38,280 nucleotides of DNA from Verrucomicrobiales bacterium (GTDB taxonomy: Bacteria; Verrucomicrobiota; Verrucomicrobiia; Verrucomicrobiales; V1-33). A model generated the notes under the pieces. That model saw only the letters and a list, made by a program, of their open reading frames with translations. It was not told the origin of the DNA and ran no database searches. Of this stretch, positions 30,801 to 33,040 are shown in pieces. Numbering within the stretch: position 1 is the stretch's first letter; every line of letters begins with the position of its first letter. The stretch is from the NCBI GenBank assembly GCA_947462995.1, contig CANHUG010000002.1, positions 1 through 38,280 of the forward strand, given 5' to 3'. The position numbers and the translations under genes were made by a program.

Positions 30801-33040
30801 CCAACACGTACGACGAGTTCGGGCGCCTCTGGAAGAGCACGAATCCTTCGGGTGAGGTGATCGAGTACCGATACAAGGACACGGATCCGGAGGGATCCCG
30901 TCCTTCGGAGATCATGTATCCGACGTTCACGAGGAAGCTTGATTACAATTACGCGACGCGGCGGGTGACGACAACGGACTGGGTGGGTGAGACGAAGCTG
31001 AGGACGACGGTGCACGAGATTGACACCCGAGGCAATGTGGTGGCGATCACCGACAATGAAGGGCGCAGTCAGACCTTCGGTTACGATGCTCTGGGCCGGT
31101 TGACTCGTTCTGAAACAGCGGGAGGTCTTGTGGAGTTGTTCACATACAACCGTTTTGACCGCCTTGCGACCTACACGTCGCCTGACGGGAAGGTCTGGGA
31201 GTACGGCTACAGTGCCGACGGACTGCGTGTGAGCGAGACGTCGCCGGAGGGTCGGATCCGTCGGTTTGAGTACACTGATGCGGGCAAGCCGGAGCGGACC
31301 ATTGAGCCCAACGGCGACATCGAGGTCATTGAGTATGACGCTGGCGGCCGAGCGACTGATTTTCAGTATTTTGCGGGGGCGGCACCTGCGACTGTGCAGA
31401 AGGCGGTGACGTTCACGTACGATGCGGACGGGCGGATCACGGGGTACACGACGACGGGTTCCAGCGCGGTGTATGGATACGACGCGAAAGGGAGGAAGAC
31501 GTCCGAGACGGTGAACTATGGAGCATTCACGAAGTCGCAGAGCTGGACGTACAATCCGGATGACAGCGTGGCCACGCATACGAATGCTGCGGGAACGGTG
31601 ATTGTTTACCGGTATGATGCAGGTGGACTGCTCGAGTCCATCGAGTTGCCAGGAGTCGGGCAGATCACCTACGGTTCGCGGTATGGTGGTCGGGTCGGGA
31701 CGATTACGGTACCTGGGGGCGTGACGCAGAACTTCAGTTACGATCCGCTGCTGCGACCAACGGGGATGGCTCTGCGGAAGGGAGATGGCACGGAGATTTA
31801 CTCGTGGTCTGAGGCGTTCGATGGATTGAATCAGGTGTCCGAGCGGACTGTTGACGGGGTCAGTGAGGCGTTTGGGTATGATGCTTCCGGGCGACTAACC
31901 CTTGCTGGCGGGACGGCGTTCACTTATGACGGCCGAGGCAACCGCAAGACCCGGACGGGAGTTCCGGGCACTTGGGAATACAGTGATGATGACGAACTGG
32001 AGGCGGCGGGAGGTGCGACGTTCGGGTATGACGCCCGCGGCAGCCGGACCAGCCGAGTCGGGGGCGGGGGTGATCACGGTTATGGGTATGACGCGCAGGG
32101 TTTCCTGACGTCTGTGGTGACTGCGGCGGGCAATGCCAGCTACCGGTATGATCCTTTTGGTCGACGGATTTCGAAGACGGTTGGCGGAGTGACGACGTAT
32201 TTCAGCGCCAGCGATGATGGACTTGAAGCGGAGTTCGATGCGGCCGGCAATGAGATTGCGAGTTACGGGTATGATCCCGGTTCTGCGCATGGTCAGCGTG
32301 CCTTGTGGAAGAAGGTTGGTCCGGAGTATTACTGGTATGGATTCGACAAGCTTGGGACGCCTGTGATCATGGTTGATTCCGATGGAGTGGTGGTCTGGAA
32401 GGCAGTTTACGATGCATTCGGTGCGGCGACGATTGCGGTGGCGACGGTGGAGAACAACCTGCGGTTCCCGGGGCAGTATTTCGATGCCGAGACGGGACTG
32501 CACTACAACTGGCACCGGTACTACGATCCTGCGACGGGACGATTCCTGAGCCGGGATCCGGTGAGGGATGAGTACAATCACTTCCTGTATGCGCAGAACA
32601 ATCCGCTGACGAAGTTTGACCCTGACGGGCTGCGGGCGAAGGTGAGCATCCCGATTCCCCAGAGTGGGGGGCTCTGCAAGGTTTACACCTCGCTGGACTT
32701 CTGCGAGTGCGGTGTGAAGTGCGGTGGTTCGCTCGGTTCCAGCAAGATCAAGAAGGCGGGATGCGAAGCGGCGATCGATGCGGATCTGTGCAACGGCCGC
32801 AACGGGAATGGTCCGGGTGGATTCCCGGCGCCCAAGGTCTGTGCGTCGGCTGGCTGCAAGATTGGTGACGGCACTTGCAAGGCGGAGTTGCTGAAGGCGT
32901 GCTACGATTTCAGCAAGAAGAAGGGCAGTGCCTCTGGACCTTCGCTCGGATGCAAGGGCAAGGGCCCCGGGAAATCGGAATTTGAATTCAAGACACCGCC
33001 GATCATCAAGACCGGTGACCGTGACGACTGGGGCTACTGA
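12851..33040 (+). CDS. Giant (6,729 aa) exported multidomain FG-GAP propeller / Ig / CARDB / FN3 protein ending in an Rhs (YD-repeat) shell and a novel C-terminal domain
   Basis: An uninterrupted 20.2-kb ORF. The preferred start is ATG 12851 ([23 protein letters not shown], Sec-type signal) rather than the in-frame ATG 12821. Segments recognised by eye, in order: a jelly-roll-like N-domain (...[10 protein letters not shown]); five Ig-like + 2xPPC modules, three with 7-bladed FG-GAP propellers; four CARDB-like domains; FN3-like domains ([28 protein letters not shown]); carboxypeptidase-regulatory-like domains; a G/S/T linker; a Cys-rich segment; YD repeats and an Rhs core ending [10 protein letters not shown]; and a 135-aa tail. 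Confidence 0.9.
   Translation: [6729 protein letters not shown]
14519..16732 (+). repeat. Intragenic tandem module 1 (Ig-like + 7-blade FG-GAP propeller + 2 PPC domains)
   Basis: The unit starts at the recurring D..(A/P)P..T...(L/F)P.EG motif ([17 protein letters not shown]). Seven blades have the form GDLNGDGxLD....NY.....V.LGNGDGTF. The PPC motifs are [10 protein letters not shown]...YRIRVS and GDYFRLG. Length is 2214 nt. Confidence 0.85.
16733..18943 (+). repeat. Intragenic tandem module 2 (same architecture)
   Basis: Starts [17 protein letters not shown] and is 2211 nt long. It aligns colinearly with module 1, e.g. [52 protein letters not shown].RV is near-identical. Confidence 0.85.
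18944..21154 (+). repeat. Intragenic tandem module 3 (same architecture)
   Basis: Starts [17 protein letters not shown] and is 2211 nt long. The next motif copy ([17 protein letters not shown]) begins at 21155 and opens a propeller-less Ig+2xPPC module. A similar propeller-less module lies at about 13430-14518. Confidence 0.85.
22319..23852 (+). other. Four CARDB-like domains within the giant protein
   Basis: Four ~125-aa units each begin with a (F/Y)P(N/D)L-type strand and contain ...(V/W)(R/T/I)(N/D)(G/R)(G/N)N...: FPNLIVSEI...[16 protein letters not shown]...[18 protein letters not shown]...WTDRNNGN and YPDLQVTGL...WIDRNEGN. Boundaries are approximate. Confidence 0.6.
28682..28981 (+). 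repeat. In-frame Gly/Ser/Thr/Ala low-complexity linker encoded by short tandem DNA repeats
   Basis: 100 codons reading [24 protein letters not shown]...[33 protein letters not shown]...SSG. They include five perfect GGAACA hexamers (28859-28888) flanked by degenerate GGNACN and GGNAGY/TCN copies. Confidence 0.9.
29340..32632 (+). other. Rhs/YD-repeat shell and Rhs-associated core of the giant protein
   Basis: Many YD-type repeats are present (e.g. [69 protein letters not shown]). The core reads [10 protein letters not shown]...[27 protein letters not shown]...[36 protein letters not shown]...[11 protein letters not shown], with DPDGL at 32618-32632. The start boundary is approximate. Confidence 0.85.
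32633..33037 (+). other. C-terminal variable (putative cargo) domain, 135 aa, unassigned family
   Basis: The sequence after DPDGL is [135 protein letters not shown]. It has 11 Cys and no His, and is Lys/Gly-rich. Confidence 0.6.

Follow-up and report, generated by a model that had tools for sequence, protein, structure and literature searches.

A cysteine- and lysine-rich domain family in the cargo position of giant Rhs proteins from Verrucomicrobiota

Analysis of a 38,280-nt stretch of a Verrucomicrobiales genome assembly (GenBank GCA_947462995.1, contig CANHUG010000002.1, positions 1 to 38,280; hereafter the window) uncovered a giant Rhs protein of 6739 aa, encoded by a single plus-strand open reading frame (ORF) at positions 12821-33040. 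Judged by profile and structure-database searches, the last 135 residues of this protein, a cysteine- and lysine-rich tail, are a previously undescribed domain family. Relatives of the tail were recovered from 13 further loci, in every case at the C-terminus of the same orthologous giant protein and immediately after the motif that closes the Rhs-associated core. The explanation that we favour, with modest confidence, is that the tail represents C-terminal cargo enclosed within a giant Rhs surface protein, which a freshwater Verrucomicrobiota host exports through the Sec pathway.

Anatomy and distribution of the tail

Translation and profile searches resolve the giant protein into an ordered series of modules. 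An N-terminus resembling a Sec signal peptide is followed by approximately 5200 residues of surface-protein modules with adhesin-type repeats (Pfam, NCBIfam), including FG-GAP (FG-GAP_3, E=9e-150), Big_5, PPC, CARDB, and Ig-like arrays. These repeats lead through a Gly/Ser/Thr linker into a Cys-rich module, then the YD shell, and finally the Cys-rich tail (Table 1). The preliminary description of this DNA, made from the letters and ORF translations, had placed the end of the Rhs core at a PxxxxDPxGL motif followed by a 135-residue domain, and both the motif and the boundaries proved exact: DPDGL occupies residues 6600-6604 (nt 32618-32632), and the match to the Rhs-associated core profile TIGR03696 (NCBIfam, E=7.2e-24, residues 6530-6604) has its C-terminal edge precisely at L6604. 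Within the core, R6574, D6579, and D6600 form an Arg-x4-Asp...Asp arrangement, assigned by position against the R2111/D2116/D2140 triad of BiTLP, the bacterial teneurin-like protein of B. inaquosorum. Both putative catalytic aspartates are kept in every ortholog.

The composition of the tail was compared with that of the remaining 6604 residues of the same protein. Cysteine is enriched 35-fold (11 residues vs. 0.31 expected, P=3e-14), and lysine is similarly in excess (18 vs. 1.35 expected, P=3e-15). The counts of 11 Cys, 18 Lys, and no His given in the preliminary description are therefore correct, with the Cys and Lys excesses at ~1e-14, while the abundance of glycine and the lack of histidine that it also emphasized are statistically ordinary: 23 Gly are found where 17.8 are expected (P=0.12) in a protein that is 13% Gly overall, and zero His in a single tail has a P of 0.26. 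Across the family, none of the 12 ortholog tails compared contains a histidine, and the more divergent tail of locus L018 contains one. The tail is basic and hydrophilic, with few hydrophobic residues, a richness in Gly, Lys, Pro, and Ser, and no transmembrane-like segment. Its cysteines show CxC, Cx3C, and Cx4C spacings, and the motif YT[ST]LD[FG]CEC is strongly conserved, with invariant D22 and E25 (tail numbering); the other invariant polar residues are R1, K3, S5, N54, R56, K88, and K108.

The tail had been said to match no recognised toxin family, and this was borne out in Pfam, NCBIfam, PADLOC, and the Protein Data Bank (PDB). Neither the tail nor 11 aligned family members matched any Pfam, NCBIfam, or PADLOC model, even at E<=10; the best phmmer hit in the PDB has E=1.4, and a profile search of that database gave no match to the tail. 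Structure prediction and a Foldseek comparison, both proposed in the preliminary description, were run and returned low-confidence models only (pLDDT 40-43) and no match at E<0.2. AlphaFold2 produced a helical model from the single sequence (pLDDT 40) and an all-beta model from a four-sequence alignment (pLDDT 43), and the best Foldseek match of the second model (E=0.22) is uninformative since that model is itself of low confidence. A relation to methylamine dehydrogenase's small subunit, considered on account of a MauE gene in the locus, was rejected because no Pfam match was found at E<=10.

When 1.84 billion representative proteins were searched exhaustively with phmmer, relatives of the tail were confined to three clusters, at 82%, 56%, and 60% identity. 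The null result of an earlier word-index protein search with the tail was set aside, as that search had missed P0001 and P0002, proteins in which the tail is present at 82-99% identity. Ten further loci emerged from DNA scans of genome and metagenome collections, and a context look-up added L018 (47% identity), bringing the family to the window plus 13 related loci. Named sources are all metagenome-assembled Verrucomicrobiota (Verrucomicrobiaceae and Akkermansiaceae), and viral contigs yielded no relatives. The search for the tail on other scaffolds, which had been suggested as a check, thus found it solely at the end of the orthologous giant Rhs protein, and members of one tail family are present at each of the 14 loci that have this shell type.

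In the 12 orthologs, the tail is 52-86% identical to that of the window, and the last 400 shell residues are 51-85% identical; conservation of the tail exceeds that of the shell in the orthologs furthest removed from the window. Values of dN/dS for close pairs lie between 0.09 and 0.15 for the tail, which marks its reading frame as real, and between 0.09 and 0.11 for the shell. Because identity and dN/dS track those of the shell, and the tail does not differ from the remainder of the giant gene in GC or GC3, the tail is vertically inherited under purifying selection and is not a cassette swapped within this clade. Recent horizontal gain of the tail was rejected on the same GC and GC3 values. 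Strict conservation in all homologues had been named at the outset as the observation that would count against a polymorphic cargo, and it was found in part: the tails of the 12 orthologs are conserved like the shell, and L018 retains a member of the same family at 47% identity.

Cysteine pattern and the MauE-rhodanese genes

Nine tail cysteines are invariant, and the total across the family is always 9, 11, or 13. C15 and C30 are jointly missing in L007 and L018 and present in all other members, while the L005 tail has two extra cysteines. Because the counts change in steps of two, disulfide pairs in the tail are likely. The earlier suggestion that the domain is disulfide-rich thus gains support from the nine invariant cysteines, from their paired loss and gain, and from the presence of MauE in the same gene cluster. 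The giant protein has 26 cysteines in total, of which 11 lie in the tail and 8 in the pre-shell module (residues 5389-5482); the shell, 1122 residues long and acidic (pI 4.9), has none. The pre-shell cysteines fall into clusters of five and three in most orthologs and of seven and three in L018, and the module was detected only where the locus also has a Cys-rich tail.

To gauge how unusual a Cys-rich tail is, the nearest Rhs relatives (P0003-P0120) were surveyed. Their shells are 36-45% identical to that of the window, and their 62 tails of at least 60 residues fall into 53 unrelated families. At least five cysteines are present in 38 of the 62 tails and at least seven in 25, while the accompanying shell fragments contain 0-2. 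Precomputed Pfam annotation identifies PF09056 phospholipase A2, Amidase_2, Peptidase_M23, Peptidase_M15_3, and Hydrolase_2 among these tails. Since 38 of the 62 are Cys-rich and some are known envelope-acting enzymes, a Cys-rich tail is normal for this Rhs branch and is no argument against an enzyme, and the proposal that such a tail makes the payload an unusual one among Rhs cages fails in this branch. The relatives resemble the window protein in their almost Cys-free shells and in tails that measure 80-150 aa and contain 7-13 cysteines, with an odd number in nearly every case. They differ in that their tails share no sequence similarity with the window tail, which lacks His and any CCxxHD-type motif.

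The number of cysteines is odd in 54 of the 61 Cys-containing relative tails (p=4e-10), and no odd-number bias was seen for His, Trp, Met, Tyr, or Phe in the same tails (p>0.09). Twelve relative tails contain exactly one cysteine, often as the first or penultimate residue. Because odd counts prevail, the most economical interpretation has one cysteine of the tail bonded to a partner outside it, which suggests that a disulfide between cargo and plug is general among these Rhs relatives. In the window, a candidate partner for the odd cysteine of the tail is the three-cysteine cluster at the N-terminus of the shell.

Upstream of the giant gene, the locus encodes a MauE-family membrane protein and two rhodanese-domain proteins. 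The periplasmic rhodanese PspE can partially replace DsbA/DsbB. MauE can stand in for DsbB in E. coli, an activity that depends on its CXC motif (bioRxiv 10.64898/2026.03.05.709764); the window homolog has such a motif. The 424-aa rhodanese gene ends in a stop codon that overlaps the giant gene's start, an arrangement suggestive of a single operon. A MauE homolog 43% identical to that of the window is encoded at a sister locus, L015, where MauE and rhodanese occur in a different arrangement. From this gene content we infer that the locus may encode its own oxidative-folding module, composed of MauE and the rhodaneses.

Cargo position, proposed mechanism, and alternatives

Sister loci were located through homologs of the 671-aa accessory protein encoded immediately downstream of the giant gene. 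Three of them, L015 (Chthoniobacteraceae), L017, and L019, encode a giant Rhs protein of similar architecture followed by a protein of the 671-aa family, and L015 and L017 also share the TIGR02597 and PEP-CTERM genes found in the window. Their shells are 35-38% identical to the window shell, and three unrelated tails stand after the DPxGL position. The tails of L015 and L019 contain no cysteine and are followed by small ORFs of 126 aa and 85 aa, respectively. L017 carries an unrelated 124-aa tail (locus positions 9570-9944) with seven Cys and six His and no small ORF after it. No small ORF follows the tail in the Cys-rich family either (window plus 13 loci, 9-13 Cys per tail). Assignment of the L017 tail to phospholipase A2 on the basis of a CREHD motif was not supported by Pfam or the PDB. 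Because sister loci with shared accessory genes carry unrelated tails, the position after DPxGL is best read as a slot for exchangeable effectors. The preliminary description had treated the tail as polymorphic cargo; other tails occur only at the distant sister loci, and the term does not hold within the clade of the window protein, where the tail is as conserved as the shell.

No dedicated small immunity gene follows the tail in the window or the related loci. In the window, 21 nt separate the stop codon of the tail from the 671-aa gene, and the next genes (the 671-aa gene and two more) are also kept beside unrelated tails, which argues that none of them is an immunity gene for this tail. 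The 671-aa protein was considered as an immunity protein and rejected, since its family is widespread and occurs beside unrelated tails or without any Rhs protein; on the evidence of its gene neighbourhoods, it is an accessory of the system.

Under the cargo explanation, the giant protein would be exported unfolded via Sec, and the YD shell would then fold round the tail. The putative aspartyl-protease site of the shell (R6574, D6579, D6600) would cut after L6604 of DPDGL, leaving a fragment of 13.8 kDa, which agrees with the size of ~15 kDa that cargo of this kind usually has. The tail would be held together by about five internal disulfides, including C15-C30. They would form outside the cytoplasm, probably aided by the MauE and rhodanese proteins of the locus, and the remaining odd cysteine would probably bond a plug-region cysteine at the shell entrance. 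Action outside the cytoplasm is most likely because peptidoglycan hydrolases and phospholipase A2 occur among the relatives' tails; the target would then be an envelope or extracellular structure that is absent from the producer or against which the producer is protected. A target absent or shielded in the producer would in turn explain a conserved, undiversified cargo with no immunity gene. As to its activity, we have a slight and tentative preference for a cargo that binds or permeabilises. A fuller version is a speculative one that we consider rather unlikely: a non-enzymatic, disulfide-knotted basic cargo, folded by the MauE-rhodanese module, tethered to the plug by a disulfide, and freed, for example by reduction, onto a non-self target such as a eukaryotic grazer or alga, as an immunity-free payload resembling a peptide toxin. 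On that version, the odd-cysteine tether would apply generally to a whole branch of secreted Rhs proteins.

Several features ally the window protein with the classical Rhs and Tc cocoons (the T6SS proteins Tse15 and RhsA, where T6SS denotes the type VI secretion system, and TcB-TcC), namely the YD shell, the core with PxxxxDPxGL, the catalytic aspartates, and a tail of ~14 kDa in the cargo position. Unlike those proteins, it is a giant with a Sec-type signal, ~5200 adhesin-like residues, a cargo that is conserved throughout the clade, no immunity gene, and a tail of an undescribed family. Pfam scans of the giant protein and its neighbours detected no PAAR, VgrG, or T6SS family and no SpvB, mid-N, or beta-propeller match of the TcB type, and the window contains no TcA-sized gene. 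WapA-type Rhs toxins of Gram-positive bacteria are exported by a signal peptide and displayed at the surface, and they carry polymorphic, cytoplasm-acting nuclease tails with cognate immunity proteins. The window protein is like them in relying on Sec export instead of a T6SS, and unlike them in a tail that is monomorphic, Cys-rich, and encoded without an immunity gene.

A described parallel to the proposed tether comes from BiTLP. This protein is Sec-exported, has Ig/TTR-type N-terminal domains and a YD shell, and releases by cleavage a ~15 kDa cargo that stays within the shell and is non-enzymatic, membrane-active, and hydrophobic; its cryo-EM structure contains a plug-to-cargo disulfide (bioRxiv 10.1101/2025.11.11.687626). 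Bacterial teneurin-like proteins have been reported from six phyla, Verrucomicrobiota not among them, and normally have an immunity gene directly downstream (bioRxiv 10.1101/2025.11.11.687626). The window protein shares with BiTLP the Sec signal, Ig-like domains, and the YD shell, and its odd tail cysteine fits a disulfide tether; unlike the BiTLP cargo, the window tail is hydrophilic, has no transmembrane segment, and has no immunity gene downstream. A test for TTR-like domains gave a weak CarboxypepD_reg match (E=1.2e-4, under the Pfam cut-off), and the NHL domain, which in bacterial teneurin-like proteins lies between an FN-plug and the YD shell, was not found when residues 2501-6739 were scanned against Pfam at E<=0.01 to 1. 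A non-enzymatic, membrane-active cargo of the Rhs type therefore already has a precedent in BiTLP.

The strongest competitor to a binding or permeabilising cargo, possible although we would not bet on it, is a small enzyme with an unknown fold that acts on the envelope, such as a lipase, a glycosidase, or a Cys/Asp/Glu hydrolase, stabilised by disulfides. The Cys-rich tails of the relatives include five enzyme families, as listed above, and the Asp and Glu of YT[ST]LD[FG]CEC could form a catalytic or Ca-binding site, supplemented by the further invariant polar residues; the odd cysteine could serve as a nucleophile. On the other hand, no profile or structure search matched the tail to any enzyme family, His-dependent chemistry is excluded by the 12 ortholog tails that lack His (L018 has one), and a composition with few hydrophobic residues and abundant Gly, Lys, Pro, and Ser is seen more typically in small disulfide-rich binders. 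Enzymes that act on the envelope, moreover, usually have an immunity protein, and none is encoded at the locus. Binding of metal by the cysteines in place of disulfides, as a Zn or Fe-S cluster or a metallothionein-like site, is very improbable. The CxC, Cx3C, and Cx4C spacings and the joint loss of C15 and C30, which is also compatible with loss of a two-ligand site, would allow it, yet the protein has a secretion signal and a disulfide-forming MauE at its locus, its tail offers no His ligands and at 8% Cys falls far under metallothioneins, and an odd-cysteine rule that extends over unrelated tail families points to disulfides.

It is improbable, but less so, that the tail has no toxic function and is instead a structural element, filling the shell and tethering it covalently, or a ligand or adhesion module, with the giant protein acting as an adhesin, in the way that the YD shell of eukaryotic teneurins serves a non-toxic use. 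The tail is monomorphic in 14 loci and evolves at the rate of the shell, ~5200 residues of adhesin-type repeats precede the shell, and the pre-shell Cys module, the shell type, and the tail are inherited as one unit. Against this role, the cleavage motif and both catalytic aspartates are kept, unlike in teneurins, which have lost the catalytic residues, and the unrelated tails and small immunity-like ORFs in the same slot of sister loci indicate exchangeable effectors. The cargo explanation itself has to contend with several observations besides the possible active site in YT[ST]LD[FG]CEC. A conserved cargo with no immunity gene fits a non-toxic role equally well. The arginine of the triad is replaced by Thr in L010 and L011 (GTYLSRDP), and DPxGL reads DVTGL in L012, so cleavage competence may vary among these orthologs. 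MauE may be the general DsbB substitute of the organism, and its adjacency is visible in just two loci. The pre-shell clusters of five and three could pair mutually, in which case one tail thiol would stay free, since parity names no partner. The two AlphaFold2 runs were unreliable and contradictory and give no confident fold for the tail. Finally, what the sequences show directly is the anatomy, the conservation, the cysteine pattern, the gene context, and the lack of a known family; cleavage, encapsulation, disulfides, the tether, the site of action, and any toxicity are inferred.

If the cargo explanation is correct, an undescribed, lineage-restricted cargo domain would be added to the Rhs repertoire, and Rhs cargo could be monomorphic and immunity-free, here in an eight-gene locus conserved among freshwater Verrucomicrobiota. 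The odd-Cys tails predict that plug and cargo are tethered covalently and that release involves a redox-dependent step. The connection with MauE and rhodaneses, together with the 671-aa accessory family, points to the folding and display of giant surface proteins.

Features of the locus and neighbouring genes

The genes that lie 3′ of the giant gene in the window, encoding the 671-aa, TIGR02597, and PEP-CTERM proteins, are conserved in all loci (Table 1). The 671-aa family, for which no Pfam model exists, is widespread, with 214 homologs that are 40-96% identical across phyla.

Table 1 Features of the giant Rhs locus in the window
Feature	Position (nt)	Strand	Evidence and remarks
Paralog of the PEP-CTERM protein, 325 aa	9463..10440	+	BLASTP E=1e-58; upstream edge of locus
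Membrane-anchored single-domain rhodanese, 175 aa	10462..10989	+	Pfam Rhodanese 1.7e-15; homolog adjoins MauE in L015
MauE-family membrane protein, 147 aa	10986..11429	+	Pfam MauE 1.5e-25; DCGCFG (CXC) motif
Rhodanese-domain protein, 424 aa	11559..12833	+	Pfam Rhodanese 3.7e-06; C-terminal CGTC motif
Giant Rhs gene	12821..33040	+	ORF list, Pfam; orthologs with uninterrupted ORFs >3400 aa
Pre-shell Cys-rich module	28985..29266	+	5-Cys cluster (5389-5425), Gly-rich spacer, 3-Cys cluster (5467-5482) at shell N-terminus
YD/Rhs shell	29267..32632	+	Residues 5483-6604; 17 RHS_repeat stretches (PF05593 E=2.9e-78); TIGR01643 E=8e-64
End of Rhs-associated core	32516..32632	+	R6574, D6579, D6600 (putative aspartyl protease); PxxxxDPxGL motif; predicted cleavage after L6604
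Cys/Lys-rich tail, 135 aa	32633..33037 (stop 33038-33040)	+	Follows DPDGL; 13.8 kDa, pI 9.0
Secreted accessory protein, 671 aa	33062..35077	+	Ig-like Big_9/He_PIG domain (Pfam)
TIGR02597-family secreted protein, 352 aa	35105..36163	+	NCBIfam 6.5e-37; downstream in all loci
PEP-CTERM protein, ~232 aa	36160..36867	+	PEP-CTERM motif E=0.0017, below Pfam cut-off; kept in orthologous loci

Members of the 671-aa family show 40-50% identity across Verrucomicrobiota, Desulfobacterota, and Gammaproteobacteria, and one example is carried by a plasmid of Methylomonas koyamae. Genes of this family adjoin those of giant surface proteins of the Rhs or beta-helix type (L013, L015-L019), often together with rhodanese and transglutaminase-core genes. 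The paralogs at 9463-10440 and 36160-36867 bracket the locus; they are 50% identical over ~200 residues, and only the downstream copy has the PEP-CTERM motif. Other gene families in the window neighbourhood are PSCyt2/PSD1 and DUF1501; with PEP-CTERM and the related contigs, they assign the window to the Verrucomicrobiota.

Within the giant gene, nt ~14500-21500 (residues ~570-2900) encode three to four near-identical super-repeats of ~700 residues, built from Big_5, FG-GAP blades, and PPC-like modules. The low-complexity (Gly-Ser)n/(Gly-Thr)n linker that precedes the Cys-rich module (nt 28688-28978, residues ~5290-5386) varies in length and composition between orthologs and is missing in L003, L004, and L006. 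Genes backed by Pfam or NCBIfam between ~4.2 and 36.9 kb are all on the plus strand, a SIS-domain ORF at 430-2025 is on the minus strand, and the long minus-strand ORFs inside the giant gene appear spurious. The GC skew, (G-C)/(G+C), is very strong and uniform at ~0.2-0.4 across positions 1-37000, at a GC content of ~60%.

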